Assembly (NCBI GenBank): GCA_037137755.1
Contig: JBAXJR010000003.1
Coordinates: 1-64,000, forward strand
Direction of reading: 5' to 3'
DNA length: 64,000 nt
Origin: Methanomicrobiales archaeon
GTDB taxonomy: Archaea; Halobacteriota; Methanomicrobia; Methanomicrobiales; Methanospirillaceae
Shown: piece by piece, positions 22,793 to 52,571 of the stretch
Layout of the letters: every line of letters begins with the position of its first letter
Position numbering within the stretch: position 1 is the stretch's first letter
The notes under the pieces: generated by a model
What the model saw: only the letters and a program-made list of their open reading frames with translations
Database searches by the model: none
Told to the model about the DNA's origin: nothing
Position numbers and translations under genes: made by a program

Positions 22793-23326
22793 TTAAAGCC
22801 ACGCTTTTCTTGAGGCGAGCTCGATTGCCCGCTGGACTGATTCCTTCGGAATTATCGTGGCAACGGGAATATGGACAAGCTGTTCAATAACACTGCTGAC
22901 GATTGGAGCACAGACAATTGCTACTGCACCTTCCCGTTCTGCCCTGACCGCAGCGACGATTGCGTCCTCCATGGTATGCACAGGATATTCACGGATCGTA
23001 ATATGGTGTCCTTCTACGTCAGCAGTCCGCTCAACTACAATATCGAGTACCGGGCGAGCTGCGATAAGACCAATAAACTCCTCCTCGTTATGCCGGTAAT
23101 ATCGCCGTAGCGCACGGACTATAGCCCTCAATGTGGATAAGTTCGGGGAGCGTTTACCATGAAGGATTTTATAGAGGGAACTCTGGGCTATACCACTTTC
23201 AAGGGAGAGCTCCCGGATCGTTATTCTCAAATCCTTTCGAAGAATATCATTAAGAACAACGACAAACTCTTCATCTGATAACAGGGCTGCCCTCATGAGC
23301 TTGTCAACAGGGTCCATCTGTACCAT
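22793..23326 (-). CDS. XRE-type HTH transcriptional regulator with C-terminal ligand-type domain
   Basis: HTH TIRELSLESGIAQSSLYKIL..RSPNLSTL. Divergent from the ABC operon. ATG at 23326 is the likely start. Confidence 0.85.
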   Translation of the reverse strand: MVQMDPVDKLMRAALLSDEEFVVVLNDILRKDLRITIRELSLESGIAQSSLYKILHGKRSPNLSTLRAIVRALRRYYRHNEEEFIGLIAARPVLDIVVERTADVEGHHITIREYPVHTMEDAIVAAVRAEREGAVAIVCAPIVSSVIEQLVHIPVATIIPKESVQRAIELASRKAWL

Positions 23327-23526
23327 AGTAGTGATACAATAAGGACAATTTAATATTAAAATATTCGTTTTGTGCCAGTGATAATATATAATACTCAATT
23401 TTTATGGACATTTATAACCTGCTTATTATCCAATTGTAAAATATTATGGGTTTAATCAATACTATTGTATCCATTTTTTATCCTTAAAATGAATATATAA
23501 ATATTGACAGGTCGACATTTTCTCTT

Positions 23527-24777
23527 ATGAAGAAGATCGCTTCCCTTATTGTCTGCATCACCCTTGCAATGGTCCTTCTTATTGCAGGATGCACACAACC
23601 AGTAACTCCCCCAACAAATGTTACCCCCCAGGTAACAACTCCTGCCGGCACTGGCGCCACAGAAGTCGATGTCATGTATGCAGGAGGTGTAGGGCCGATG
23701 CCGGTCCTCCTCTCAACGAACCAGGTAGATGGCTACATCGCATGGCAGCCGTACGTATCCGTTGCAACGGTATCAGGTATCGGGCAGCTTGTCACCTATA
23801 CCAAGGACTTCCCCCCGGTTCCGGAATGGAATAACCACCCCTGCTGTGTCCTCACTGTCCGTGATGAACTGTATGCAAGCAACCCTGATTTTGTTAATGC
23901 CATGGCAGCCCAGACAATCCTCGCTGACCAGTGGATTACCGATCATCCAAACGAGGCAGCTGCTGACATGTCTACCTGGATTATCGGGAACGACACTATT
24001 AAGTTTGGTGACCAGTCTGTCCCGGCATTCAGTGTCTTAAAAGATGCGATCCCCACGGTACGGTACACAACTGAGCCCACCCCGGAATGGATTAACGGAA
24101 CTGAAAATTTCGTTAATGCCCAGATCAGCCTCGGTTATATCACCGGCTCACTGAAAAACACCAGTGCCGAAAACAGGGATGCCCTGCTGTTCAATTTCAA
24201 GCCGTACAGGGACGCGAAACAGATGATTGCTGACAAGAAGATCGTCACCCCTGCCAAACTGAACAAACAGGTCGGAATCGGGTACCTAAAGGGTGATATG
24301 CACGGTGGTTCTCTCATTATAGCAGTCAAGGAATGGAAATACTTCAACGACACCTACGGCATCGCAATCAAGCCACGAGACCCCACGGCAACAAAACCGG
24401 AAATCTGCGATCTTATTGTCAACGGTGTGACAGTTGCTGAACTGAAACTCGTTTCGGCAGATGCCGGGCCACAACTGATGCAGATGGAAGCGACAGATAT
24501 TGTCGGAATGGGTTATGCCGGGGTCCCCCCTGCAATCGGGTCTATTGACAAAGGGTCCGCGATAAAAGTACTGATGCCCATTAACACGGAGGGATCAGGA
24601 CTTGTCGCAACAAAGGGTTCCCCTGCCCACGACTGGAACAGCTTCATCAGCTATGCGCAACAGCGTTCTGCAAGTGGAAAACCATTAAAGATTGCAGCGC
24701 CGTCCAAAGGGTCCATCCAGGACGTAATGTTGCAATACTCCCTGAAATCAAGCGGTGTGACAATAAAATTTGTCTGA
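23527..24777 (+). CDS. NitT/TauT-type ABC substrate-binding lipoprotein (apparently circularly permuted)
   Basis: Lipobox LIAGC and T/P linker. Motifs DGYIAWQPY, HPCC, GIGYL..DMH, GYAGVPP, NTEGSG and PSKGSIQD. Confidence 0.88.
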   Translation: MKKIASLIVCITLAMVLLIAGCTQPVTPPTNVTPQVTTPAGTGATEVDVMYAGGVGPMPVLLSTNQVDGYIAWQPYVSVATVSGIGQLVTYTKDFPPVPEWNNHPCCVLTVRDELYASNPDFVNAMAAQTILADQWITDHPNEAAADMSTWIIGNDTIKFGDQSVPAFSVLKDAIPTVRYTTEPTPEWINGTENFVNAQISLGYITGSLKNTSAENRDALLFNFKPYRDAKQMIADKKIVTPAKLNKQVGIGYLKGDMHGGSLIIAVKEWKYFNDTYGIAIKPRDPTATKPEICDLIVNGVTVAELKLVSADAGPQLMQMEATDIVGMGYAGVPPAIGSIDKGSAIKVLMPINTEGSGLVATKGSPAHDWNSFISYAQQRSASGKPLKIAAPSKGSIQDVMLQYSLKSSGVTIKFV

Positions 24778-24866
24778 CACCAACCTGTTTTTACGGGATT
24801 CACACCATGGTACGTTCATTTCCACGGATATATCCGACATCGCGTTCTCATCGTAACCGGGATGCC

Positions 24867-24887
24867 CATGTTCCGGTCCGGAACATG
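24867..24887. repeat. Perfect 10-bp inverted repeat between SBP and permease genes
   Basis: CATGTTCCGG-T-CCGGAACATG read directly from the sequence. Confidence 0.8.
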
Positions 24888-24963
24888 ATGTTCATACTAT
24901 CCTTTCCTATTTCGGGATCTTCCGTGAAAGAAGGTTCATCTGGCTGCAGGGAGAAATAACACC

Positions 24964-25773
24964 ATGCAAATGCCCCCCGAGCACCAACGATGGTGGCATT
25001 GGATCCTCTCAAAATCCATCCTTTTAAAAATTGCGCTTCCGGTTATCATTATTATCAGCTGGGAAGTGCTCTCGGTACTTATCGATAACCCATTTATCCT
25101 CCCTTCGATAGAATCTGTCCTGCTCGTGCTGTCGAGGCCATTTGCCGATATCCTGGGAAGCGGGAGCCTCATTGGCAACGCAATGGTCAGTCTCGGGAGA
25201 GTATTAATTGGATTTTTTGTTGCAGCCGTGCTCGCAATCCCTCTTGGTATTGCAATGGCCCGGAATGGTAAGGCCCACGATTTTTTTGATTCCACGATAC
25301 AGGTATTCCGTCCAATTCCCCCGCTCGCCTGGGTCCCTCTTGCCCTTGCATGGTTCAGGATTGGCCTCTTGTCCATGGTATTTATAATCGCAATCGGTGC
25401 TTTTTTTCCCATCCTGCTTAATACACTCGACGGGGTGAAAAGCATAAAAAAGACATGGATCGAAGCTGCTCAGACGCTCGGTGCAAAAGAAAGGCAGGTC
25501 CTGGTCAACGTGGTCCTCCCTGGTGCAGCCCCTACCATATGGACCGGTCTCCGGGTAGGGTTCGGCATTGCATGGATGTGTGTCGTCGCAGCAGAGATGA
25601 TGCCCGGGACTAATTCTGGAATCGGGTATCTCATTATTACTTCCTATAATTGGGGCCAGGTGCAGGTAATCATTGCAGGTATTGTTGTTATAGGGGTTAT
25701 CGGGCTTGGAATTGATTATCTCTTTAAATTTGTTGAGAAGAAGAAATTCATGTGGAGGGAGTTAGACCGATGA
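24964..25773 (+). CDS. NitT/TauT ABC transporter permease
   Basis: RPIPPLAWVP, EAA loop IEAAQTLGA, and GLRVGFGIAWMCVVAAEM. Confidence 0.95.
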   Translation: MQMPPEHQRWWHWILSKSILLKIALPVIIIISWEVLSVLIDNPFILPSIESVLLVLSRPFADILGSGSLIGNAMVSLGRVLIGFFVAAVLAIPLGIAMARNGKAHDFFDSTIQVFRPIPPLAWVPLALAWFRIGLLSMVFIIAIGAFFPILLNTLDGVKSIKKTWIEAAQTLGAKERQVLVNVVLPGAAPTIWTGLRVGFGIAWMCVVAAEMMPGTNSGIGYLIITSYNWGQVQVIIAGIVVIGVIGLGIDYLFKFVEKKKFMWRELDR

Positions 25774-26525
25774 CACTTCTTGTTGAAAATATCAGCAAAG
25801 AATTCGAGCAACGTGATGTCCGCTCGGCTGCACTCGTATCCATAAATCTCGAAGTACAGCAGAAAGAATTCACCTGCGTCCTCGGACCTTCCGGATGTGG
25901 GAAGACCACATTACTTCGTATCATAGCGGGTCTCGAGAAACCGACTACGGGAGAGGTCTTTATCGGAGGGGAAAGAGTCACTGGGCCTACACCCCGAATG
26001 GCGATGATTTTCCAGGACTATTCGTTGTTTCCCTGGCGGACTGTCCTTGACAATATTTCATTTGGCCTTGAGATGCAAGGGATGGCTGAAGAGGAACGTC
26101 ACAAGATTGCCGGCCATTATCTTGACCTGATCGGTCTTTGCGGATTTGGAAAAAATTTTCCCTACGAACTTTCCGGAGGTATGCGCCAGCGCGTTGCCGT
26201 TGCCCGTGCACTTGCAATTGACCCGTCTGTCCTGTTGATGGATGAACCGTTCGGGGCGCTTGATGCCCAGACAAGGAACATGCTCCAGAAGCAATTGCTT
26301 GAAATATGGGATAAAACGAAAAAAACCGTCCTTTTCGTGACGCACAGTGTTGATGAAGCCGTTTTTATGGCAGACCGGATAGTCGTGCTCACGAACAGGC
26401 CTGGAACGGTGAAAGAAGTCGTGAATATCGATCTTCCCCGCCCGCGAGACAGGACCAGTCAGGACTTCGCGAAGGTCCGCCGTTATGTGCTCGGTCTGAT
26501 CGATGAACCCCAGCTCATCCAGTAA
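25770..26525 (+). CDS. NitT/TauT ABC transporter ATP-binding protein
   Basis: GPSGCGKT, LSGGMRQR and MDEPFGALD. ATGA overlap with the permease stop. Confidence 0.96.
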   Translation: MTLLVENISKEFEQRDVRSAALVSINLEVQQKEFTCVLGPSGCGKTTLLRIIAGLEKPTTGEVFIGGERVTGPTPRMAMIFQDYSLFPWRTVLDNISFGLEMQGMAEEERHKIAGHYLDLIGLCGFGKNFPYELSGGMRQRVAVARALAIDPSVLLMDEPFGALDAQTRNMLQKQLLEIWDKTKKTVLFVTHSVDEAVFMADRIVVLTNRPGTVKEVVNIDLPRPRDRTSQDFAKVRRYVLGLIDEPQLIQ

Positions 26526-27632: not shown

Positions 27633-29381
27633 ATGATATCTGTTTTGCTCGTAGATGATGATCCTGCCCTGTTGGAAATTACCCGTATCTATCTCACGAG
27701 GAATAAGGAGATGGTGATGGATGCGGCACAGTCTGCGGCGGAAGGGCTTGAAAAACTTAAGACAAAGACATACGATGTGATTGTATCCGATTACGATATG
27801 CCGGTTATGACGGGAATTGAATTTTTAAAAACCCTCAGGCTAGCCGGGGATCAGACACCCTTCATCATCTTCACCGGAAAAGGGCAGGAACAGGTGGCGA
27901 TGGATGCGATCAATAATGGTGCCGATTTCTATCTCATACGTGCAGGTGACCCGAAAAATGAGTTTATTGCTCTGACCCACAAGATCAGGAAGGCGGTTGA
28001 GCAGCACCAGGCAGAACTGGCGATCAAGGAATCCGAGGAACGTCTGCGAAAACTTCTCTATTCTCTCCCGTCCGGTGTCATGGTAATTGATGCAGAAACC
28101 CATGTTGTTGTGCAGGTAAACCCTGCAGCACTCCATATGATGGAAGCAACGGAACCTGATATTTTAGGTAAATCATGTTTTGGCATTGTCTGTCCCTCCG
28201 AAGAACTTCAATGCCCGATTACTGATCTCGGGCAAAAATTTGATAGTATTGAACGTCTGCTGATACGGAAAGATCACAGCGCCATACCCGTATTGAAAAG
28301 TGTTGCACGGATTACGCTAGGAAAACGCCCGGTACTGGTAGAGAGTTTTATCGACCTCTCTGAACAGAAGAAGGTTGAGCGCGAACTCCACGAAAGCCGG
28401 GAGAAATACCGTACACTGGTCGAAGAGATCCATGACATGATCTGGCTGATCGATGCGAAAGGGCTGTTCAAGTACGTGAGCCCCCGGAGCTTCAGCCTGC
28501 TTGGATACCACCCTGAAGAGTTGATTGGCCATATGCCATCTGAATTCATCTCGTTCGAGGATGCGAACTTTATCCGCGATATGTTCATAAAAAATTTTAA
28601 GGAGCATAAGGAGCTGCACCTGATTGAGACCCATACCCGCCGCAAGGATGGAAGGGTCGTCGTTCTTGAATCAAGTGCCATTCCATACTATGCCAAGAAT
28701 GGCTCCCTTCTCGGGTACCGGGGGGTCAGCCGTGATATAACGGAAATCAAAAAAGGTGAGGAGGTACGGGCCCTGCACGCTGCAATCGTGACCTCTTCTG
28801 ACGATGCAATTATCAGCGAGGACTTAAATCACCTGATTACGACCTGGAACCGGGGCGCCGAGAGGATCTATGGATTTGCCCGGGAAGAAATGATCGGTAC
28901 CGACCTGCACGAAATCGTTCCTGATGAGGAAATGGGAGCCCTTCATGATATTGTTGACCAGGTCGTCAAAGGTGAACATGTTGAACATTTCAACACATTC
29001 CGGATAAAAAAAACCGGGGGCCATGTTGAAATTTCACTCTCACTCTCTCCAATTCTTGACCACCGGAACAACATCATCGGGATTGCCACCATTGCCAGGG
29101 ATCTCACGAAACAACGTGAAACAGAGAAAGCCCTGCTGGCCTATATCTCTGAGACTGCCATGAGGTTGAAGAACCCCGTTGAACTAATCGGGGACCGCCT
29201 GGCAGATATCCGGGACCAGGTCAAGGCCGGTGATGTAACACCCGATGAGCTCCTCCTCCAGCTCCAGATCCAGATCAAAAATACAGAACAGATTGTTTCG
29301 AACCTGCGTGAACTGAACATGGCAATTTCAACGGGTTTTACCAACATACCTGAAGCATACCAGAAATACCTGAAAAGATAG
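27633..29381 (+). CDS. REC-PAS-PAS-PAS sensor ending in a His-less HisKA-like helical domain (no HATPase)
   Basis: REC motifs LLVDDD/VSDYDMP. Three PAS/PAC units. C-terminus AYISETAMRLKNPV...AYQKYLKR with no N/G1/G2 kinase boxes. Confidence 0.9.
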   Translation: MISVLLVDDDPALLEITRIYLTRNKEMVMDAAQSAAEGLEKLKTKTYDVIVSDYDMPVMTGIEFLKTLRLAGDQTPFIIFTGKGQEQVAMDAINNGADFYLIRAGDPKNEFIALTHKIRKAVEQHQAELAIKESEERLRKLLYSLPSGVMVIDAETHVVVQVNPAALHMMEATEPDILGKSCFGIVCPSEELQCPITDLGQKFDSIERLLIRKDHSAIPVLKSVARITLGKRPVLVESFIDLSEQKKVERELHESREKYRTLVEEIHDMIWLIDAKGLFKYVSPRSFSLLGYHPEELIGHMPSEFISFEDANFIRDMFIKNFKEHKELHLIETHTRRKDGRVVVLESSAIPYYAKNGSLLGYRGVSRDITEIKKGEEVRALHAAIVTSSDDAIISEDLNHLITTWNRGAERIYGFAREEMIGTDLHEIVPDEEMGALHDIVDQVVKGEHVEHFNTFRIKKTGGHVEISLSLSPILDHRNNIIGIATIARDLTKQRETEKALLAYISETAMRLKNPVELIGDRLADIRDQVKAGDVTPDELLLQLQIQIKNTEQIVSNLRELNMAISTGFTNIPEAYQKYLKR

Positions 29382-29388
29382 AGCTAAC

Positions 29389-29949
29389 ATGGGATTTTCT
29401 GCCGATACGCTGAACGAGAACCGGATCGTCCTACTGCTTGCTGACTCGCGCAGGCTGAAGCAGACGAATACCGCGGTAATCAAGGAGCTGACTAGCACAG
29501 GCTACAGCGTAATGCTGGTATCTGTCACACTCCCTAACATCGTGATCCGGCGGACGTACGAAGCGGCAGGAATTGACATGTCAAAAGTGTTCGTCGTCGA
29601 TGCAGTGACAAAATACTCTGGAGGCCAGACGGTTTCTGACGACCCTCACTGTAAATATATTTCCAACCCGGGAAATCTCACTGATATCGGCATAGTCATC
29701 ACTGAGGGGCTCAAGATCCTCCCGGGGGATAAGAAGTGCCTGTTCGTTGATGATATCTCAACAATGCTCCTCTATTCCCCCTCAGTCACCATATCAAAGT
29801 TTATTCATTTTATCACGAACAAGCTCCGGTTATTTGATGTAGCTGGCGTGTTCCTCGCTGTCGAGAAAGGGCTTGACCCGGCCCTGCTGACGCAGATCTC
29901 AACATTTGCCGATTTGGTTGAGTCAGTTGAAGAGGCTGAGAAGACGTAA
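29389..29949 (+). CDS. Small inactive KaiC/RecA-fold protein (iKaiC/DUF835-like)
   Basis: Alternating beta/alpha pattern, FVVDA and Walker-B-like LFVDDISTMLLY, ISTFAD. No Walker A. Confidence 0.75.
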   Translation: MGFSADTLNENRIVLLLADSRRLKQTNTAVIKELTSTGYSVMLVSVTLPNIVIRRTYEAAGIDMSKVFVVDAVTKYSGGQTVSDDPHCKYISNPGNLTDIGIVITEGLKILPGDKKCLFVDDISTMLLYSPSVTISKFIHFITNKLRLFDVAGVFLAVEKGLDPALLTQISTFADLVESVEEAEKT

Positions 29950-30142: not shown

Positions 30143-31255
30143 TCATACCCTTGAAGCGATCTCAGCTGCACTTAGGGACCTGTTGTAGAATGCGGCTTCG
30201 TCAATGGTGCCTTTAAAGAATTTCTGGCCACCTGCATCAGACCCGATATAAATGTCCTCAGAGGTTTTCTTTAGTTTTCCGGTAACCGGTGTTTCTCCCT
30301 TGAGAACCCCATTCACATAGAGTTTTAGGGAGGCACCGTCATACGTGAGGGCGAGATGGGTCCATGAATTGAGCAGCACCGGCCCACCCCCCCAGTTTAC
30401 TTTGTGGAGGACCTTGTCCGCGGTATAAATCGAACCCTGCCACCCGTTATATTTGTCCTGGCCTATGCCCTCTCCGTCCCAGTCCCTCTTCTGGATGATT
30501 TTCGTCGTATTCTGCTCCGTTGGGTTTACCCAGGCTTCAAACGCTATCGCGTTCTCCGGTGCTTCAGATGCGGATCCCTGTATACGGACACTACTGTCAA
30601 TACCATTGAAAAGAAGTGCTTTTCCCTGTTTTCCATTTACCCAGGTTGCATTTGTGATGATGCCCGTATACCCTTTCCCGGAGAGGTCTGCAGTGGTAGT
30701 CCCCGCTCCATCGTTAAATGACCAGAACCCTGATGTACCATTTGGAATACCGCCAGGGGATGTCTGTGATCCCCCTGCATCAATGTTCCACTTTGCGATG
30801 AGGAGATGTGAATTCTCGTCCACCAGCCGTACTGTAATCGCACCCGGAGGGAATTGTCCTATGGCAGGTGATAATAATTCTGAAAGGTTGTTAGTAATGT
30901 AGAAACCACTCGCAGTTTTGAACACATAGAGCGTGTCACCTGGGCGGAACTGGTTCGTTTGCGAGAGTGGAACTGCCCGTGTACTCCCCGTGGATGAATC
31001 GATATACACCCCCATTACATATTGTCCCTGGCTGCTCAGGTTCAGGCTTGCAGTATCGCCGCCCCTGTTATACAACTTAACTACATTTTTCCCGGAAATG
31101 TTCTGGCTTGTGATATCCGGAGCGATAAATGCGGATTTTGGTGTGAGATCGATAAGGCCGAGAAAAAGTGAGGCAACAATCGCGGCCACTGCGATTACCA
31201 GGATAACGATCAGGAACGAACCGATAATTTCGTTGATTGCGTGATCGTTTTTCAT
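30143..31255 (-). CDS. Type IV pilin-like protein with C-terminal LamG (ConA-like) domain
   Basis: Class III signal HA/INEIIGSFLIVILVIAVAAIVA. LamG motifs FEAWVNP, WTHLALTYDG..LKLYVNG and FKGTIDE..FYNRSLS. Confidence 0.9.
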   Translation of the reverse strand: MKNDHAINEIIGSFLIVILVIAVAAIVASLFLGLIDLTPKSAFIAPDITSQNISGKNVVKLYNRGGDTASLNLSSQGQYVMGVYIDSSTGSTRAVPLSQTNQFRPGDTLYVFKTASGFYITNNLSELLSPAIGQFPPGAITVRLVDENSHLLIAKWNIDAGGSQTSPGGIPNGTSGFWSFNDGAGTTTADLSGKGYTGIITNATWVNGKQGKALLFNGIDSSVRIQGSASEAPENAIAFEAWVNPTEQNTTKIIQKRDWDGEGIGQDKYNGWQGSIYTADKVLHKVNWGGGPVLLNSWTHLALTYDGASLKLYVNGVLKGETPVTGKLKKTSEDIYIGSDAGGQKFFKGTIDEAAFYNRSLSAAEIASRV

Positions 31256-31322
31256 GATCTGTGACTCATTGTATGATTATTGGTTGATACGGGGTGGTGA
31301 TATTATGGTCCGGGGACTAAGC

Positions 31323-32342
31323 TCATGGAAGCCCGGCCGCAAACCGGGAAGCCACCTCGGCTGGACCCATTGCACTTTCATAGGTATTTAGTCCCCTGAT
31401 ATTCCCATTGAACTTCCTGAGCATACTTGCAGAATCCGGCCACTGAATACCAGCCGGCCCTCCTACCTGGTATGGACCGGTTGGTGTCCGGAGGCCGGTG
31501 GTGTCAGGACCTCCCGGGTTTGAACCATACTCCTGCACACCATTTACGAAGATTGACATCGTACCCGGTGTCTGGTTGTAAATGCCGACGACATAAAACC
31601 ATGTCCCCATTGATGGATGCGTGGTTGATTGAATATATGTCATACCTCCTGATTTTTTCTCACGGGCAAATTCGAATTTTGTGTCAGTCTGATCGTGTTG
31701 AAGCTGGTACTGGCGGTTATTATCCGAGTTCCCATTCACTACGATGGTCGCCCATTGTGCATCAGGTGGTGGACTAGCCGGGGCTATGTTCCATTTTATC
31801 CACGCTTCAACGGTGAATCCCGGGTACCTGGGGTATGGTGAAGGTGCTCCACCACCGGAGAGGTATATCGTATGCTGGGCGATGAGGATATTTGAGGTCG
31901 CATCAACAATGTTCACCGTCCAGGTCCCGTTTAAAAAACCAGTATTATTCTTAACCGGAAATGTGGAATCTGTAACCCATGATCCTGATGCGTTCCGGAA
32001 TAAGTAAAGGGAGTTCCCCGGCTTCCAACCATTTGGAGCGGTCCCGGGTAACGGGATAAAATTGTACGTTACCGATCCATTCGTCAATGAAAATTTCACC
32101 GGTAACCCTGAAGCTTTCGATGGGGCTAGTGACACAGTCTCTCCCTGGGAGAGGAATAACTCAACAGCAGAGGCATTCGTGATATTGACAGGGGTAGCCT
32201 GGGTGACAATGTAGGGGGTTTTCGGGAGCGGGACTGCCCAGCCGAGAAAAAGAGCCCCTATGATGGCAGCAAGAGCGATTACGAGTATGACAGCGAGGAC
32301 TGCGCTGATTATTTCAGATATTCCGCTCTCACTGTGATGCAT
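31323..32342 (-). CDS. Type IV pilin-like protein with LamG-like C-terminal domain
   Basis: SG/ISEIISAVLAVILVIALAAII, FTVEAWIK, WFYVVGIY..MSIFVNG and FNGNIRGL..Y. Confidence 0.88.
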   Translation of the reverse strand: MHHSESGISEIISAVLAVILVIALAAIIGALFLGWAVPLPKTPYIVTQATPVNITNASAVELFLSQGETVSLAPSKASGLPVKFSLTNGSVTYNFIPLPGTAPNGWKPGNSLYLFRNASGSWVTDSTFPVKNNTGFLNGTWTVNIVDATSNILIAQHTIYLSGGGAPSPYPRYPGFTVEAWIKWNIAPASPPPDAQWATIVVNGNSDNNRQYQLQHDQTDTKFEFAREKKSGGMTYIQSTTHPSMGTWFYVVGIYNQTPGTMSIFVNGVQEYGSNPGGPDTTGLRTPTGPYQVGGPAGIQWPDSASMLRKFNGNIRGLNTYESAMGPAEVASRFAAGLP

Positions 32343-32498
32343 AAAACGATATTTGGTGCTTATTGCTTAATATGGAATGTGTCGTGGTTATTCTTTTAAC
32401 AGGGGATACTACGATTGGAATAGACCGATCCCTGCTCAAATTGCGTTATAATGGGATTCCCCCTTACTCGAAACGTTAACTGACGATGAAAAACCCTG

Positions 32499-33538
32499 TC
32501 AGGATATTGGAAGTCCGGCGGCAAACCGTGAAGCCACTTCAGGTGAGCCCATTGCCCTCTCATAGGTATTTAGTCCGCGGATATCCCCGTTAAAAATTCG
32601 CGTATTGGCAACCCCTTCAAAAGTAATTCCTCGGGGTCCTCCCCTCTGGACTGGCCCTGTTGATGACCGAAGGCCGGAACTATCTAAATGTTGGGATGCC
32701 TCCAGGTGACCATTCACGAAGATTTCCACATCCCCTGGTGTCTGGTTATAGACCCCGGTGACATAGTACCAGGTTCCGGAAACCGGCTGTGTGGTTGAAA
32801 ATATCCATGTTCCCCAGCTCCCCTGTGTAACGGTTGCAAAGTCTACTTCAAAGTGCAGATCCAGCCGATCGTGCTCAATTTGGTACTGGCGGTTACTATT
32901 CGTGTCCCCATTGATAACGATGGTCGTATAAGTCTGGTTTTCCAGATTAGTTGGGATTGGATCCGAAATATCTGGTTTGTTTATCCACTTTACCCATGCC
33001 TCGACAGTAAACCCCGGGTACACCGGGTAAGGTGCAGGTGTTAAACCGCCGGTAAGAGCTATTGTATGCTGAGCGATGAGGATTTTTGAGGTCGCATCAA
33101 TAATGCTCACCTTCCAGGTGCCATTTGAAAAACCGGTATTGTTCTTGACCAATGACGGGGAATCTGTGACCCATGACCCTGTTGCATTCCTGAATAAGAA
33201 GAGGGAGTTCCCGGGCTTCCAGCCATTCAGTGCAGCCCCTGGTAACGGGACAAAATTGTAGGTAACCGATCCGTTTTCGTCAATGAAAACTTTACCGGTG
33301 ACCCTGATGCCGTGGCAGGTGCGAGCGAAACCGTCTCTCCCTGCTCGAGGAATAACTGAACAGCGGAGGCGTCCGTGATGTTGATCGGTGTTGCCTGGGT
33401 GGCAATATAGGGGGTTTTCGGGAGCGGGACTACACATCCGAGAAAAATAGCCCCGATGATGGCAGCAAGAGCGATGACGAGTATGACAGCAAGGACTGCG
33501 CTGATAATCTCCGATACTCCGCTCTCACTGTTGTGCAT
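32499..33538 (-). pseudogene. Frameshifted pilin-LamG paralog
   Basis: ORFs 33227..33538 and 32499..33437 together align to 31323..32342. There is a 2-nt insertion in the T4 run at 33274-33277 (ACGAAAACGGA vs ACGAATGGA on the coding strand). Confidence 0.88.
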
Positions 33539-33708
33539 AAAACGATATTTGGTGCTTATTGCTTAATATGGGATGTAAGGATGAGGTTCTTTTTATTGCG
33601 AAACCTAGAGATTGCAACAACGGTTTGTGTCTGAAATTACGCTACGTTAGCTGAATCAGTACTGCCAAAAGTGCTTTATCAGAAGTGGACATTTTTCTGA
33701 ATCTGGTA

Positions 33709-35520
33709 TTACGTGGGGTGATCTTGGATGTTATAATGGGTTTGTATCTCGGCCTGAGTCTTTACGTAATCAAAGGTCTGAACTCCGTATATGGATCCGT
33801 TGAAAACACGTTGCTGTTGAGAAGGAGGGGGATTTGGCCAATTGATGCCCGACGGTCCTCCAATCTGTTGGTTACCTGAATAAGCCCTTAGACCTGAACT
33901 GTCAACGGATCTCGAGCTCTGTGGAGAATTGTTTACGTAAATTGTCATAGTTCCAGGTGACGTGGGGTTGTATACCCCTGTAATAAGATACCATACTCCT
34001 TTGATTGGGTTTGTGGTGGAAAATACCTGAATTCCTTGACCCCCCGCCAATACTGTTGCAATGTTAAATTCAAATTTAGTATTGTCCTGGTCGTGTTCAA
34101 GATGGTACTGGCGATTAAAGTTCGAATTGCCCTTCACAACAATAGTCGCAAAGGTCTGGTTATCTAAAGGTGTAGAGGGTTTGTTTATCCATTTTACCCA
34201 TGCCCAAATTGTGAACCCTGTACATCGATTACCAAAATCTATGTTATTTGCATAACAAGGAGATGTATCTTTGAGATGAACATTCCTCCAAACACCTCCA
34301 CTTGGATATGTTTGTATCCATCCTGATTGAGAGATTTCTTCAATATCATATTTGGTATCAACATCAGGTCCCGTATAAATGAGTCCGGTTATAATATAGT
34401 CCCCATTCACATTTGTAATGGCAGATCCGGCGATGGAATTATTGCTTGTCCATCGAACATTTATCCGCCAGTCAGCCAGCCCCGGCTCATTCACATCTCT
34501 ACTCCCATCACCATCAATGTCATTCCATTTCGTTCCTGATATATATCCGCAGGATGGTAGGGAAACTGTGATTTGTTTTATAATTGAATTTGAGTTACAC
34601 GCATTTGATACGGTAAGATTGACATTATAGGTTCCGGGACTCACAAAGGTATATGAGGGACTTTGTAGTGAAGATGTTCCATTATCCCCGAAATTCCAGC
34701 TCCTGCTTGTTGGACTGCCGGTTGATTGGTCTGTGAATTTGACAGTTAAAGGGGCGGTACCTGAGGATATATTGGGATTGAATGCTGCTGATGGTTTTGT
34801 GCAGACGGCATTTACAGTAATATAATTCGGTTCGATTTTCGAATTTGAACAACCTGCATTCGAGGCAGTAAGTCGGATATTATAGACACCTGGTAATGTG
34901 AAGACTTGTCTCGGGGATTGGGCCGTGCTAAACTGGGTCCAACTGCCACCTCCTGTTTGGTTTTCCCAGATCCACGAGCTAGGATTATTGGTTGAAGTGT
35001 CAGTAAACTGGACCGTGAGTGGTTGGTCTCCTGTAAGTGGTACCCCATAAAAATTAGCAACAGGGGGTGAACATGGAATCGTAAAAGGAATTGGTCCGAC
35101 TGATCTCTGGCCGAGTAATGTCGGAGAATTAGTCCCAGTATAATATACACTTATTAATCCCGGTGGATTTGTAGAATTTACAGTGATTATCCGTCCAATT
35201 GACCATTTTTTATCTGGATTTGAATTAACCGTGAAATCTGTTATATTCTTTCCATCAATAAATACCGCATAATTTCCATCTGATATTTCATCTCCTCCGA
35301 TATGGGTGATACTTATTGAATAGGAGGGTACGCCATTGACCAGATTGGTAGTATTAACAACCGAAAACTTTACCTGTGGGACTTTGTCTGCTGATGGACT
35401 TGATATTAGTCCTGCTGCAATAACGGCTACAACAAGAACGATCATTGAAATTAGGATTAACGCACCAATTAATTCCGACACGCCTAATTCCGATATATGG
35501 CAATTTTTCTTATCCTTCAT
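33709..35520 (-). CDS. Type IV pilin-like protein with 2x PKD, SdrD-B-like and LamG-like domains
   Basis: LG/VSELIGALILISMIVLVVAVIA. PKD motifs PLTVQFTDTS..WIW and PLTVKFTDQS..WNFGD. ISGTKWNDIDGDG..EPGL, then FTIWAWVK. Confidence 0.9.
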   Translation of the reverse strand: MKDKKNCHISELGVSELIGALILISMIVLVVAVIAAGLISSPSADKVPQVKFSVVNTTNLVNGVPSYSISITHIGGDEISDGNYAVFIDGKNITDFTVNSNPDKKWSIGRIITVNSTNPPGLISVYYTGTNSPTLLGQRSVGPIPFTIPCSPPVANFYGVPLTGDQPLTVQFTDTSTNNPSSWIWENQTGGGSWTQFSTAQSPRQVFTLPGVYNIRLTASNAGCSNSKIEPNYITVNAVCTKPSAAFNPNISSGTAPLTVKFTDQSTGSPTSRSWNFGDNGTSSLQSPSYTFVSPGTYNVNLTVSNACNSNSIIKQITVSLPSCGYISGTKWNDIDGDGSRDVNEPGLADWRINVRWTSNNSIAGSAITNVNGDYIITGLIYTGPDVDTKYDIEEISQSGWIQTYPSGGVWRNVHLKDTSPCYANNIDFGNRCTGFTIWAWVKWINKPSTPLDNQTFATIVVKGNSNFNRQYHLEHDQDNTKFEFNIATVLAGGQGIQVFSTTNPIKGVWYLITGVYNPTSPGTMTIYVNNSPQSSRSVDSSGLRAYSGNQQIGGPSGINWPNPPPSQQQRVFNGSIYGVQTFDYVKTQAEIQTHYNIQDHPT

Positions 35521-35689
35521 TTCCCCTCATTTCATGATCGTGTTAGATTTCAGCGTAATTGATTATGGCTTGAAATAATCGTCACTGTTGTAACCCTTTA
35601 TGAGTAAAAGATAAAAAGCTATTTTTGGTGATGAATGTTCGTAATCTTATTTTTGATTGATTACAGCTTTTCCTTTTCAAAAAATACCA

Positions 35690-36118
35690 TTACACAAAAT
35701 TCGTCTTGGCCAGTAGAATTTTATTGGAAGGTCCATTATAGTATAATTCGACAACTTTAAGTGAAGGCTGATAATAAATAACAATGGTAGGGTTTTCGAA
35801 AGACCAATCTTCTTTTGTTTCTATTAATAATCCTCCCGCAGAATTATGATAGTATAAGGGAGGTACTGGATTTCCGTCAATTATTACTTGAAATTCCCCC
35901 CATTTTAGTGTATCTCCCCCCATATGAGTTATCGTAACATTATTCGATGCATTGGAAATAGATACACTTAATTCCGGTATTTTTTCTGGGCGAGGCTGGG
36001 AAATTATAACAGTGGTTACAACCATCATAAGCATTACAACAAGTGATACGAGAAGAATTGCGCCTATTAGTTCCGATACACCAGATTCTAATTCAATTTC
36101 ATCTTTTTTGATTTTCAT
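35690..36118 (-). CDS. Type IV pilin (archaeal Pilin_N/DUF1628 type)
   Basis: SG/VSELIGAILLVSLVVMLM and VTITHMGGDTL. Confidence 0.88.
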   Translation of the reverse strand: MKIKKDEIELESGVSELIGAILLVSLVVMLMMVVTTVIISQPRPEKIPELSVSISNASNNVTITHMGGDTLKWGEFQVIIDGNPVPPLYYHNSAGGLLIETKEDWSFENPTIVIYYQPSLKVVELYYNGPSNKILLAKTNFV

Positions 36119-45043: not shown

Positions 45044-46969
45044 TCAGATGAAGAAATTGAAGATAATCACCGCAATAATGAGCATGATTGCTGCATGTTT
45101 AAGACCGGCACTGAGTGAGGCCTCTCCCATCTGACCAGCTATAATCCCTGAGAAGAACGCCTGTACCAGGCACCCGTGATACATCAGCCGGGATATGGTA
45201 TACATCGAGGCGGAACTAAAGCCGGCAAAGGCACCTGTTGCCGGGAGCCCCTTGGTATCGATGTTCCCCATTACGGGTATGAACTGGGTCGTGATAACGG
45301 CCACAACGAAAACAAAGACGATGAATGCAAGGTAAATGACTGCCGTATAGATGAACATCTCTGACATGCGTTCCTTTTTAAGGGTCTCCGACATCCGCGC
45401 ATCGCTCCCTGCGATGGTCAGCACGTCACTGATCGAACCACTCATCTTGGTCGCCTTGCTGATTAACGTAACAGTACGTGCAATCATCGGTGTCGAAATC
45501 CGCTGTTCAAATCTCATCAGTGCATCTGTAAAATTCGCGCCCCAGTCCATGTCCCGCTTGATCCGCTTTATCTCGTATGACAGGAGACCCAGCTTGGTAT
45601 TGACCATGATCGAGATCGCCTGCGATATGGTCAGCCCGACCTGGTTGATCCCGGCCATCCTGTCAAGAAAATCAGGGATCGATGCCTCAATCCCCTGGAT
45701 ATTGCGTCTCCAGAGCTCGTAAAAAATACCAAACGGGATCAGCACGATAAGAACGGCAATCACGACATGGTCATCAACCATATCGATGAACCGTTCAAAA
45801 CCGGCGGGAGGAAGACTCAGGTATACCGTGATGAGATAAACCGCTGCAACCGGGACCGTAACAAGCAGGGTCAGCTTGTAATTCATTATGAACGTCCGGG
45901 CTGGGTCCCGAATAAATTCCTTCACATTCCTGATACGGTCATAATGGAGGAGTTTTTCAAAAAATTTTCCCTCTCCCTCCTTCTTTTCGATCCTGACATC
46001 AGAATATTCCGAAAGTTCCTGTGTCCTGGTAAACCGGTTCACTGATTCAGACTTGATCGAGATCATGTCGATAAGGATGATAAATACCAGGGAGCCGATA
46101 GGGAGCAGGAGGTAAATGACAAGACCCATCTGGGTAACCGCGGCGCCACCCATCATCCCCATGACCACCATGATGATGATCAGGAACAGGGGCCCTGCGA
46201 CAAAAAGGGTAACATAGGACTCTGATATCAGCGACAGGAACTGGAGAAATTCTTTCTGTTCGAAACGGGCCTCTTCCTGGTACAACCGCACCCGGCCTGC
46301 AAGGAAGCTGGTCAGGTCCCCGCCGGTCTCGATAATTGATATCATGTCCTCGAGGAACTGTTTCATCTTTTGTGACGGGGTCGTTTCCATCAGGTGCCGG
46401 AGTGCCGTCACGACATCCATGCCAAAGAAATCGGCGTCCCTGATGACCTGCCTGAACTCGAGTGCGACTTCACCGTAAACTGGGGCATTTTCTGATATTG
46501 AACGAAAAATGACGAGTAGTTGCCCGCCACCTTTCCTCATTGCAAACATATACGCGACCGCATTATGCAGGGTGAGGTTAATCTTGGTCGCACGGTTGCC
46601 CTTCCTCATCGCCGGGTATTTCATGGCGATAAAATAAATCAGCAATGACCCGATAATAAATGAAATAACTGCCCCGATAAGGGAAATGGCCTCATTTGGA
46701 ACAGAAATCATAAGGGAATTAGGTAACGTGATTTTATACGCATTGTAAATGCCCGTATAACCAGACGGCATGCTCATGGTGAGAGTCAATGAAACAAAAA
46801 AACCGAACACCGCAAAAATAATACCGCCGAACAGCGAGACAAGCAATCCATAAAATGCATACCGCTCAGGGGTCATCGCCATGCGGGCGGAGACGAGATT
46901 TGCACTCAGGCGGGAGTATTTCTCTGAATCACGGGGGACCAACCGGTGTGCGACAGAATAAAAATTCAT
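45044..46969 (-). CDS. Type IV pilus platform protein (T2SSF/TadC/FlaJ-like, two domains)
   Basis: YGEVALEF...G.D...AL...TPS, IPDFLDRMA..G, multiple TMs and GQMGEASLSAGLKH. Confidence 0.92.
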   Translation of the reverse strand: MNFYSVAHRLVPRDSEKYSRLSANLVSARMAMTPERYAFYGLLVSLFGGIIFAVFGFFVSLTLTMSMPSGYTGIYNAYKITLPNSLMISVPNEAISLIGAVISFIIGSLLIYFIAMKYPAMRKGNRATKINLTLHNAVAYMFAMRKGGGQLLVIFRSISENAPVYGEVALEFRQVIRDADFFGMDVVTALRHLMETTPSQKMKQFLEDMISIIETGGDLTSFLAGRVRLYQEEARFEQKEFLQFLSLISESYVTLFVAGPLFLIIIMVVMGMMGGAAVTQMGLVIYLLLPIGSLVFIILIDMISIKSESVNRFTRTQELSEYSDVRIEKKEGEGKFFEKLLHYDRIRNVKEFIRDPARTFIMNYKLTLLVTVPVAAVYLITVYLSLPPAGFERFIDMVDDHVVIAVLIVLIPFGIFYELWRRNIQGIEASIPDFLDRMAGINQVGLTISQAISIMVNTKLGLLSYEIKRIKRDMDWGANFTDALMRFEQRISTPMIARTVTLISKATKMSGSISDVLTIAGSDARMSETLKKERMSEMFIYTAVIYLAFIVFVFVVAVITTQFIPVMGNIDTKGLPATGAFAGFSSASMYTISRLMYHGCLVQAFFSGIIAGQMGEASLSAGLKHAAIMLIIAVIIFNFFI

Positions 46970-49440: not shown

Positions 49441-50280
49441 ATGGGACAGGCAGAAATTCACGACCTTTCAACAAAAAAAATGCCTACAGGCATCTCATCA
49501 CTTGACCCGATGATGGAGGGGGGGATCCCTCCCGGTACCGTCGTACTCCTGCTTTCGGAAATCGGTGCCGGTAGTTATGAATTTATCTACAGTTCCGTTC
49601 TTTCCATTTCTTCAAAGAAAAATAAAGCCCCTGTTTCTGATACGATACTTCTTCCGTCCAGTATCAGGTACGTGACTTTCACCAAGATGAGTGATGATGT
49701 AAAACGTGAGATGAAATTATCGTTTTACGACGACCTGCTCGAAGGTATAGACTCCATACAATTTGAGGACCTGTCTCAGCTCTATTTTGATGCCAGTGTC
49801 GTACCGATAGACTGGTACAGCAAGGGGGATATTGTTTCACGACTCCAGAACCGTAACAACCGCGATATCCTCTCACAGTTATCATTAACGTTCGGCCCCG
49901 GGGCAGATAACAACCTGATCGTCCTCGACTCGCTCACAGACCTTGCGACGCAATATGCAGGGACTGTCCGGTGGGGCGATCTTATGGCGTTCATGCGCGG
50001 GCTCCAGCGGATAGCAAAAAAACTGAATACAACGATATACCTGCCTCTTGCACAGGGTATACTGGATGTTAAAAATGAGCGTGAAATCGCAGATATCGCC
50101 GATGCGGTAATCCTTTTCCACTGGGAAGAGAGCTCGGCAGCCCGGCGGCAGCGGGTAATGTATTTCGAAAAATTCCGGGGCCTGATGTCACACCTCGAAG
50201 AAAAAGACCTGGTAAAGTTTTCAGTCAGGATCTCCGCTGCCATCGGGTTTGAAGTGAGTAATATCAGGGTGATCATATGA
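49441..50280 (+). CDS. RAD55/KaiC-like protein with degenerate Walker A
   Basis: PTGISSLD..GGIPPG, P-loop SEIGAGSY (no Lys), IVLDSL and IADAVILF. Confidence 0.85.
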   Translation: MGQAEIHDLSTKKMPTGISSLDPMMEGGIPPGTVVLLLSEIGAGSYEFIYSSVLSISSKKNKAPVSDTILLPSSIRYVTFTKMSDDVKREMKLSFYDDLLEGIDSIQFEDLSQLYFDASVVPIDWYSKGDIVSRLQNRNNRDILSQLSLTFGPGADNNLIVLDSLTDLATQYAGTVRWGDLMAFMRGLQRIAKKLNTTIYLPLAQGILDVKNEREIADIADAVILFHWEESSAARRQRVMYFEKFRGLMSHLEEKDLVKFSVRISAAIGFEVSNIRVII

Positions 50281-50975
50281 GCGGGGGCCGGGTGAACATC
50301 GGTATTGAAGGACTTGACCAGATGATGGGTGGGGGGCTGGTCCCAGGTAGTATCGCCGCGATTATCGGCTCTTATGGTACCGGTAAGACATCCTTCGCAC
50401 TCCAGTTCTTATGGGAGGGTGTAAAGCTCGGGGAACATACAATTTACATCAGCCTCGAAGAACGTGAAGAACGGATCTTTGAATATATGGCGCAGAAAGG
50501 CTGGGACTACAAACCAGCCGTTAATAAGTTAATCACGGTATTAAAACTCGATCCATCGGATTTCAACCTTGCCATCAACCGGATTAAAAATGAACTCCCT
50601 GAACTTATCCGGACTGTTGGTGCAACACGGGTAGTAATTGACCCTATATCACTGTTTGAAGACCTTTTCGAGAGCAACTCCACAAGACGGCAGGAAATGT
50701 TCCGGTTTGTTGAAGGACTGCGAGACCAGCAGTGTACTGTTGTCATGACCAGCGAAACTGACCGGGACAACCCGTATGCAAGCCGTCACAACCTTATCGA
50801 GTACCTGTGTGACACCGTTATTATCCTGAGATATGTCAGGCCAAGTGACCTGACCGATGTCCACCTTGCACTTGAAGTGGTAAAAATGCGGTTATCGAGC
50901 CATTCGAGAGAAATTAAACCCTATGAGATCCTCCAGGACAGGATCCTCGTTCATAGCGAGGCAAATGTCTTCTGA
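50277..50975 (+). CDS. KaiC-domain ATPase (single domain)
   Basis: GIEGLD..GG, GSYGTGKT, YISLEE, VVIDP and EVVKMR...H. Confidence 0.92.
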   Translation: MSGGRVNIGIEGLDQMMGGGLVPGSIAAIIGSYGTGKTSFALQFLWEGVKLGEHTIYISLEEREERIFEYMAQKGWDYKPAVNKLITVLKLDPSDFNLAINRIKNELPELIRTVGATRVVIDPISLFEDLFESNSTRRQEMFRFVEGLRDQQCTVVMTSETDRDNPYASRHNLIEYLCDTVIILRYVRPSDLTDVHLALEVVKMRLSSHSREIKPYEILQDRILVHSEANVF

Positions 50976-51000
50976 TCTCCTGTTTTTTTAAGTTGACGGA

Positions 51001-51570
51001 TTATATCCGATCGGGTGGAATACTATCATCCATGAATGTTGAGAGGTTAGAGATCATTATAGGGTCAAGTCCTTTAATGACGGCAAGGAAGATGCCGGGT
51101 GTATCAATCAGCCGGAGACGGTTGGAGATATAATGAATAAATTTTGAGATACTTGCTGACGGGAGATAGATCAGCATGGTACTGACCGAGTCGAACACTA
51201 TACAGGGTTATTTATCCGAAAATTCGTTCAGTACCCAGATTATTGCGATACCCAGATCGGTCAGGTTTGAGAGGCTGCTGATAAACCGCACATTCGCTTC
51301 AACCTGGGGTGTTGTCCCGATCGCATAGGTTGTTTTGGCGTCTATGAAAAACATCTTCGATAGATCGAATCCTCCCCTTACGTAATTCTTTTTGAGGACT
51401 TCAGTGGGCTGGTAGGTGGTAATGATAATTACGTGGTAGCCCTTGTCCACCATCGCTTTCACGATATCGGTATTCTCCGTTTTCAACCGGTTGGCGGTGA
51501 TCAGCCGGAGGAGCAGATATTTTCCGCGGGAGATGTCCCCCGCCAGTGTCTCTATCGAATCCAGGCACAC
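51001..51570 (-). pseudogene. Inactive-KaiC-like gene with in-frame stop; paralog of 29389..29949
   Basis: ORFs 51208..51570 and 51001..51198 are in the same frame, split by TAA at 51208-51210. NLTDLGI, FDSVSTMLIY.PS..ISKFIH..N.LRL and KGLDP match the intact paralog. Confidence 0.9.
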
Positions 51571-52198
51571 CTGCTGATAAATTCCCGGTATGCCACCGGT
51601 TTCTCTTGGTTATCGGTTACAATCGCCTGGTTCAGTTCCTGGAGGTTTTCAATGATTTGTTCCTGTGTTTTTAACCTGGAGCTGGAGGCGTATTTTGAGG
51701 TCATCAGGAGGCCCTTCATTCCCGACCTGTTTTACAAGTTCCTTCAGGTTATCATGGACTATCTCTATCGGGTGACGCAGCCGGTTGGCGGATTCAGTAA
51801 TATAGGCAATCAGGATCCCGTGGTTCGCTTCGATAACCTTTTTTTGACTCGACGAGTTCCTGCTGGTACTTATCCTTTGTTGCAGATATCACGGCGACAA
51901 TTGCCGTGACCAGGATGAACCTCATGGCACGGAGGAGAGGGGGCCAGGTCAGTTCTCCTACTACCTCGAAACTGACTACTATATGCATCACCCCGAGTAC
52001 AATTGCAAGGAATACTGCCCGTTCGTGGTACCAGATGGCGGCAAGTACGAGGAGAATATAAAATACATGGGTATAAGCCGCCTCGATTCCCCAGTAGAGG
52101 TGAATCGTCTATTCAAGGAGCAGGCAGAAGAGGACAAGCAGGACCATGGTGATTTTTTTATTTTCCGGATCCCTAATCCAGTTGAATATTCGATTCAC
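51570..52198 (-). pseudogene. Decayed membrane sensor with His-less HisKA-like C-terminus; paralog of the C-terminus of 27633..29381
   Basis: Reconstructed: TM region (YTHVFYILLVLAAIWY) with one TAG, a frameshift in the T-run near 51840, AYITESANRLRHPIE...LQLQVKNT, a second frameshift near 51662, then EQIIENLQELNQAI...AYREFISR. Confidence 0.85.
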
Positions 52199-52571
52199 AG
52201 CATTAATCTCCGTAGTATCTTCTCTGATCAATCAATCGGTACTACGGGCATTTTAGTCCTTTGATACCATTCACCGGGTACTACGCACCGGGTATTTCAT
52301 TACGAAGATGAAAGGGAGGATTACGTTCATCCGTTAAAAATTCAACAACCCCAAGGGTCGATATCCTGGAAAAATCACGGATTGATGAAAATTTTCGTAG
52401 TAAGGCATTCATAAGGGGTACATTGAACCTTCCAGGTGGACAAAATCCCGGGAAAAATGATCGGGAGCAAAAACCGATCACATATCTTTTTTAAAGGAGC
52501 AGATGAGAACCTGTAGGTGAATTGAGGAGTACCGGCCCGGCATCCATGCAAGCCCGATAGTCTGAACCGGA

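Follow-up and report, generated by a model that had tools for sequence, protein, structure and literature searches.

A two-gene cassette of Methanomicrobiales pairs HATPase-less sensors with a putatively inactive KaiC-fold protein

The stretch of DNA analysed here, referred to as the window, comprises positions 1 to 64,000 (64,000 nucleotides) of contig JBAXJR010000003.1 from a Methanomicrobiales archaeon (assembly GCA_037137755.1). It carries a gene for a 582-residue sensor built of a receiver domain (REC), three PAS domains and a C-terminal helical tail. The open reading frame (ORF) of a 186-residue DUF7504 protein, which we call the partner, begins 7 bp past the sensor stop codon. The two genes form a real cassette that is specific to the order Methanomicrobiales and does not encode a histidine kinase, and the linkage counts given below show that tail and partner are associated beyond chance. 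On balance, we consider it probable that the cassette works by binding, as a sensor-receiver pair that joins kinase-type sensors to the KaiC network.

The tail is present in 92 of 201 Methanomicrobiales genomes, with up to 8 copies per genome. From 150 listed of 234 matches, 110 loci were examined and gave 117 hits; one duplicate and one hit cut at the locus edge were set aside, leaving 115 tails that were counted. A profile built from 102 tails matched 35 of the 61 Methanomicrobiales genomes searched and, among 240 genomes from elsewhere in the phylum, one. The lone match outside the order (genome G220), a long coiled-coil protein without the Arg/Pro motif of the tail, was rejected as spurious. 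A profile search of 1.84 billion representatives returned only 169 clusters, of which the best 150 were analysed, 147 of them covering the His site. Named relatives with the tail or the partner belong to the Methanomicrobiales and include cultured, named methanogens. The tail is always C-terminal, ending at most 8 residues from the stop in 115/115 genomic tails and at most 19 residues from it in 150/150 representatives. What precedes it varies, as the sequence-only reading of the window had anticipated: among the 150 representatives, 76 have PAS domains only, 31 membrane segments and 14 a REC domain, and 29 consist of the tail alone or with a short extension (many of these being fragments). 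A GAF domain was found in 3 of 36 tail proteins scanned with Pfam.

Sensor histidine kinases are recognised by an H-box His and a HATPase domain after the DHp domain, and the tail proteins have neither. In the window, the 87-residue tail forms the 3' part of ORF 27633-29381 and matches no family. Testing the register of its H-box-like motif placed Met510 (codon 29160-29162) at the His position, and no HATPase follows, either here or across homologues. Although Arg103 replaces the conserved REC lysine, the domain retains phospho-Asp53, Thr81 and the acidic pocket (D8-D10). The initial description of a REC-PAS3 protein ending in a helical domain of about 87 residues, with Met for His, no HATPase and Arg for the REC lysine, is thus confirmed by the Pfam calls and residue checks. 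Among the 115 genomic tails, the His position is occupied by Met in 52, Leu in 46, other residues in 17 and His in none. Tails that keep the His are rare (3/147 representatives and 1/239 paired tails; examples are P0119, P0211 and P0215). All 115 tails have Arg at H+1 and Pro at H+5, and 111 have Glu at H-3. Neither HATPase_c (PF02518) nor a HisKA Pfam entry was detected among 95 longer tail homologues, and the G-box motif was absent from the 150 representatives. The contrary outcome, tails that usually continue into a HATPase or retain His, was therefore not seen. Methanomicrobiales tail proteins that bear the annotation 'histidine kinase' or 'PAS S-box protein' cannot be kinases.

A DUF7504 partner gene lies directly 3' of 106 of the 115 tails, with a gap of -4 to 33 bp (105 whole genes, 1 cut by a contig end). 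The rest comprise one tail in reversed order, three beside another pair and five without a partner. In the reverse direction, loci were found with the partner alone and, once 25 duplicates were dropped, gave 144 distinct partners; a tail is directly upstream of 142, one locus has no room for it and one is reversed. The tail is present in each of the 85 genomes that hold the close partner subfamily, and 31 other genomes hold only a distant partner paralogue in unrelated settings. Sensor and partner are separate ORFs in all 117 hits, with no fusion seen. Trees were compared for 154 pairs: of 52 tail splits with good support, 41 are identical in the partner tree and 50 are compatible with it. We therefore conclude that the pair duplicates as a unit while its inputs are swapped; these linkage and tree counts include kin and are not independent. 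The proposed dedicated downstream gene for an inactivated KaiC-like protein (iKaiC) is hence found in both directions of search, and a lack of linkage was not observed.

Some loci depart from this arrangement. In L099 and L256 the partner gene is upstream of the sensor, the order being reversed. The partner locus L294 is in a record labelled Dehalococcoidia and probably represents a misbinned contig. In L168 and L172, a distant DUF7504 paralogue is followed by a protein that looks, from its motifs, like a fusion of a degenerate KaiC domain and a small GTPase. Shortened tails without the third helix are encoded at L162-L165 and L151; the sensors are REC-only or membrane proteins, the partner gene is absent from the neighbourhood, and these members are possibly decaying or repurposed.

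The partner passed the Pfam cut-off for DUF7504 (29.9 bits vs 27), and an Atlas comparison assigned it to Inactivated KaiC-like / DUF7504 (0.97). Its structure model, with a predicted local distance difference test (pLDDT) score of 92.7, matched FlaH (4yds, E=3.8e-7), PH0284 (2dr3) and KaiC in Foldseek. A Walker A motif is present in 0/245 partner ORFs, a Walker-B-like Asp121 persists, and the aligned chain stops short of the C-terminal strands of the KaiC-like fold. Judged from this motif loss, the partner has the KaiC fold but a dead nucleotide site and would neither bind nor hydrolyse ATP, in agreement with the earlier description of a RecA/KaiC-fold protein of about 186 residues without Walker A. 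FlaH/ArlH, PH0284 and CirA have the same fold (template modelling score up to 0.74, for PH0284) but an intact Walker A; CirA is described as influencing motility gene expression. No DUF835 or MEDS match to the window proteins was obtained in the Pfam scan. His140 is kept in 239/239 tail-linked partners and 120/120 outside relatives. Together with P94, L97, F138 and K145, it makes up a second conserved face that is not part of the predicted interface and hints at an additional interaction. His140 was also considered as a substitute phospho-acceptor and set aside, since it is outside the predicted interface, family-wide (120/120) and replaced by Arg in 23/23 relatives in KaiC operons.

Co-folding of one partner with two tail copies gave a score of 0.83, which covers the partner interface only, against 0.00 for the best control. 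Of 157 solved complexes, 116 attain the score mark, as do 2 of 215 mismatched pairs; these figures apply here only roughly because our own alignments and three chains were used. Prediction runs agreed in at least 92% of contacts, with partner pLDDT of at least 88, and recall of a similar complex is unlikely because neither chain has a solved relative by sequence. The predicted contact involves the degenerate H-box, the next three helical turns and helix 2 of the tail, and residues 20-24, 47-55, 73-80, 124-132 and 158-166 of the partner, which are the loops after strands 1-5. In the RecA fold, these loops carry the nucleotide site. The tail is thus predicted to bind the partner directly, with its degenerate H-box on the former nucleotide face; the contrary result, no interaction, was not seen in co-folding. 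The four most conserved tail residues (P25, R21, E17 and N67) are all inside the predicted interface, and on the partner side conservation is higher at the interface than elsewhere (p=0.0005). When tail-linked partners were compared with the 120 outside relatives, whose gene context is not established, 7 of 21 residues specific to tail-linked partners fell in the interface (Fisher p=0.02), compared with 5 of 27 family-wide residues (p=0.38). A constitutive complex is also conceivable, in which the sensor would be stabilised or localised by the partner, acting as a structural subunit or a chaperone, and the signal would leave otherwise, for example by sensor oligomerisation. One partner per sensor, tight translational spacing and joint duplication fit such a fixed 1:1 arrangement, and so would a partner without an output domain. 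The second conserved face of the partner argues against it, and we regard it as quite unlikely.

In the binding-based reading that we favour, the sensor would derive from a histidine kinase whose ATP-binding domain and phospho-histidine were lost, the helical hairpin (DHp) remaining as a handle for docking. The KaiC-fold neighbour would be its dedicated receiver, its former nucleotide face gripping the hairpin where a response regulator would dock. The input may be a ligand or redox change in the PAS or GAF domains, a membrane cue, or phosphorylation of the fused REC by another kinase. We infer that the signal travels along the coiled coil and alters the hairpin such that the partner is bound or released, and that the second conserved face of the partner, around His140, then contacts downstream machinery, likely an active KaiC-family ATPase pair. 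A wider proposal is put forward only tentatively and may well prove wrong: a distinct two-component system in which docking replaces phosphotransfer and cognate receivers converge on an active KaiC ATPase pair controlling pilus or archaellum behaviour. In that case, the cassette would be a physical adaptor between bacterial-type sensors and the archaeal KaiC network. The sequence-only reading had interchangeable sensors signalling through a helical docking domain to a pseudo-ATPase, independently of phosphotransfer. The varied inputs, the linkage and the predicted contact agree with this, but independence of phosphate would apply to the output step from tail to partner and not to the input. 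Among 28 distinct RECs fused to tails, 27 have the phospho-Asp, 19 the Lys and 8, in the window's clade only, Arg, and one is cut. Since the phospho-Asp is mostly retained, REC-bearing members may branch downstream of ordinary kinases.

The downstream target would most likely be a KaiC-family ATPase pair, for which the window holds a candidate in the overlapping genes at 49441-50975. The 49441 gene occurs in 138 of the 201 Methanomicrobiales genomes and in 84 of the 85 with the cassette. Outside relatives of the partner in family f8 are in an operon with homologues of 49441 (33% identity) and 50277 (37%), and a 49441 homologue is present in 22 of 23 KaiC-operon loci of these relatives. On account of these KaiC operons, the ATPase pair is the best candidate. 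Three other outside relatives have no KaiC or tail genes alongside. The f8 loci L337-L360, L369 and L370 contain a four-gene KaiC-fold operon encoding KaiC, a DUF7504-like protein, a degenerate KaiC and a KaiC_arch_3-like protein; the DUF7504-like member has Arg at the His140 position. In the window, the overlapping pair adjoins pilus ATPase and TadC-like genes (45044-49137). Across loci, three different tail types are found at the pilus/KaiC site. No conserved third gene accompanies the cassette, no neighbour class exceeding 32 of 213 downstream positions.

Several results weigh against the binding-based reading. Five of the 115 strong tails have no partner nearby; of 19 more diverged tails, 11 have an intact partner, one a broken partner and seven none; four truncated REC-tail genes of genus g31 likewise have no partner; and 7 of the 92 tail genomes are without the close partner subfamily. 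The agreement of the trees is expected from physical linkage alone. Conservation of the tail interface is borderline (p=0.06), and mean-field direct coupling analysis of 239 pairs (effective number of sequences, 115), too shallow to weigh much, showed no interface enrichment, with 1 of the top 10 and 5 of the top 100 couplings at the predicted interface (expected 4.4). The partner has no obvious output domain. The KaiC pair is also found in 54 genomes without the cassette (by the 49441 gene), and together with a pilus ATPase it adjoins the cassette in only 5 of 56 loci of at least 9 kb. The type IV pilus association claimed earlier is therefore seen at a minority of loci only, pilin-like genes being neighbours in 7 of the 56. 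The null covariation and the tails without a nearby partner would also be expected if the genes were only co-transcribed and co-regulated and their proteins not in contact. Near-perfect two-way linkage through many duplications and input swaps, and the gap in co-folding score between the pair and its controls, make this very unlikely. A promoter scan with bacterial consensus only revealed no excess over shuffles.

The ancestry of the tail is likewise contested by profile comparisons. Hhalign of the tail against local HisKA returned a probability of 8% and a score of 18.7, compared to 18.2 for the best of 30 block-shuffles, and the tail profile had no hhalign match to HisKA_2. PF00512 was touched at E<=0.1 by only 12 of 102 tails (best 0.0028). 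In the tail model, a short third helix accompanies a long hairpin, and a fold search with this model yielded generic hairpins (top Z 9.9), with no DHp among the best 50 listed. PDB sequence searches with tail and partner alignments gave nothing below E=0.01, the best match of the tail to a kinase-type chain being at E=0.95. The weak profile match, the generic hairpins and the poor match to kinase-type chains would suit a convergent helical hairpin that is not kinase-derived and resembles an H-box by chance, in which case the cassette would be real and belong to the KaiC network only. We consider such convergence rather unlikely, as the tail sits after a PAS linker, the usual place of a DHp, and His occurs at exactly the expected site in the few tails that have it. 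In addition, a canonical H-box matrix (9 sequences from these genomes) scored the Met register best in 190 of 235 tails, and the nearest named Atlas clusters of the tail are HisKA (0.94), with 154-157 of 256 features shared, fewer than the 170 typical for same-family matches. The median H-box score of the tails is in the top 0.15% of genome windows, the match itself being weak, and a matrix from local methanogen-type H-boxes did not pick the Met register. The tail probably descends from a HisKA hairpin (DHp), a descent that is weakly shown; the H-box resemblance noted earlier holds in the canonical register and is faint at the level of profile homology. An origin from HisKA_2/HWE, with which the tail has E at H-3, R at H+1, K and N in common, found no support: a HisKA_2 matrix placed the His register first in 73/235 tails only, and hhalign fails.

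The tail could instead belong to conventional two-component signalling and dephosphorylate RECs, bind them as a sink or serve as a decoy by pairing with genuine kinases. The KaiC-fold neighbour would then cap the docking face, blocking or freeing it, and would not be where the signal ends up. Phosphatase activity has been suggested for HATPase-less HisKA proteins (Galperin 2018, PMC5847659), and H+4, the phosphatase position (bioRxiv 10.64898/2026.02.27.708494), is Asn or Thr in 71 of 115 tails. In the model, the regulator-docking face is covered by the partner. The most frequent neighbours of the cassette are other REC/PAS/kinase genes (26 of the 56 long loci), and the genome of the window encodes 48 RECs and, judged by motif, at least 41 intact kinases. 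However, H+4 is free to vary (neither Asn nor Thr in 44/115) whereas Arg H+1 and Pro H+5 are invariant, and no REC-only gene accompanies the cassette. The His-less DivL of Caulobacter, moreover, is described as having neither kinase nor phosphatase activity and as using the DHp regulator-docking face for binding only (PMC4211667). We therefore hold a role of this kind to be unlikely. DivL is also a precedent for docking: the tail contacts at H+7, H+11/12 and H+15 match its regulator-docking face (PMC4211667). Unlike the tail sensors, DivL keeps the CA domain and binds a phosphorylated REC protein, while the predicted ligand of the tail is a KaiC-fold pseudo-ATPase. RdmS and MsmS, MA_type 2 kinases of Methanosarcina acetivorans, are PAS/GAF sensors without an H-box histidine or autokinase activity. 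In contrast to the tail sensors, they keep the ATP-binding domain and hydrolyse ATP, and KaiC is not mentioned in the available text on them (PMC11784639).

Both parts of the cassette are known as classes, and their pairing was not found in print. Inactivated KaiC-like domains (iKaiC: DUF835, MEDS, arCOG02452) were reportedly proposed as signalling hubs by Makarova et al. in mBio in 2017. A dark-matter review does no more than cite this KaiC work. The partner resembles them in having a KaiC fold without Walker A. REC-PAS-PAS-DUF835 and iKaiC-REC fusions join the same input domains to iKaiC (Galperin 2018, PMC5847659). Unlike in REC/PAS-DUF835 or MEDS fusions, the iKaiC of the cassette is a separate protein, reached via a DHp-like handle in a two-gene unit that duplicates. 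On the sensor side, Galperin 2018 (PMC5847659) describes 'HisKA, no HATPase' proteins, including REC-(PAS)n-HisKA regulators in Methanomicrobia and Archaeoglobi, in which the His is conserved and whose partners are stated to be unknown. The tail proteins share with this class the PAS/GAF/REC inputs, the C-terminal HisKA-like hairpin, several copies per genome and frequent misannotation as kinases, two of them being named 'histidine kinase' in UniRef. They differ from it in lacking the His (115/115) and in having a partner gene, none being named in the accessible text of that paper. No mention of DUF7504 was found in the literature searched, nor any description of the tail-partner pair, of which an earlier mention in Makarova 2017 or in Table S2 of Galperin 2018 is possible. 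The cassette brings together two questions of the literature: which input reaches the inactive KaiC proteins proposed as hubs, and which partners HATPase-less sensors have. As it names a partner and predicted interface residues in cultured methanogens, both questions can be tested with two small soluble proteins.

Table 1. Positions of the cassette, its second copy and the candidate target in the window.
Feature	Position	Strand	Basis
Sensor gene, 582 aa, REC-PAS-PAS-PAS-tail, no HATPase	27633..29381	+	ORF translation, Pfam
REC domain; D8-D10, phospho-Asp53 and Thr81 retained, Lys replaced by Arg103 (27939-27941)	27633..27998	+	Pfam, residue check
Three PAS domains, about aa 136-231, 257-369 and 391-493	28038..29111	+	Pfam
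Putative docking tail, two long helices and a short third; degenerate H-box E507-x-x-M510-R511-x-x-N514-P515	29118..29378	+	alignment, model
Partner gene, 186 aa, DUF7504 putatively inactive KaiC-fold protein, no Walker A, invariant His140 (29806-29808)	29389..29949	+	Pfam, model, alignment
Candidate downstream target: degenerate KaiC-like gene (49441-50280) and TIGR03880 KaiC_arch_3 ATPase (50277-50975)	49441..50975	+	homology, operon context
Pseudogene of second partner; in-frame TAA at 51210-51208	51001..51570	-	
Membrane-input sensor pseudogene carrying the tail, with Asn for His; in-frame TAG (52111-52109) and two frameshifts (near 51845 and near 51665)	51552..52198	-	

The second copy of the pair, at 51001-52198, is a pseudogene. 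The homology of tail and partner, the membrane input and the Asn at the His position were all recognised from sequence at the outset, but the four lesions, three in the sensor and one in the partner, were overlooked. Identity between the two loci is 45% for the tail and 43% for the partner, and tblastn of the whole genome found this region as the only further copy of either. Four sequencing runs from four studies, none flagged as the assembly source, were compared with the region. Contigs of independent runs match it letter for letter and without gaps (X5: 50900-52073; X6: 50900-52349), which rules out assembly error and identifies a genuine pseudogene. Intact orthologues of the second sensor in relatives (L198, L310, L311) are 214-aa membrane-tail proteins with Asn at the His position.

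Elsewhere in the window, a run of minus-strand genes (30143-36118) that resemble archaeal type IV pilin genes and encode LamG and PKD domains converges on the intact pair; one pilin-like copy (32499-33538) is split over two frames and looks frameshifted. Upstream of the sensor, a helix-turn-helix/PrpR_N-like regulator is divergent from an NMT1-type ATP-binding cassette (ABC) transporter operon (22793-26525) and seems unrelated. Two paralogous proteins of a methanogen (G000:C41:17069-18796, locus L371, and G000:C79:604-2331) have a degenerate REC, two PAS domains and a diadenylate cyclase domain, an arrangement that would place the cyclase under REC/PAS control. The cyclase domain of L371 matched DisA_N (PF02457, E=3.5e-20), this being the only one of the two paralogues scanned.

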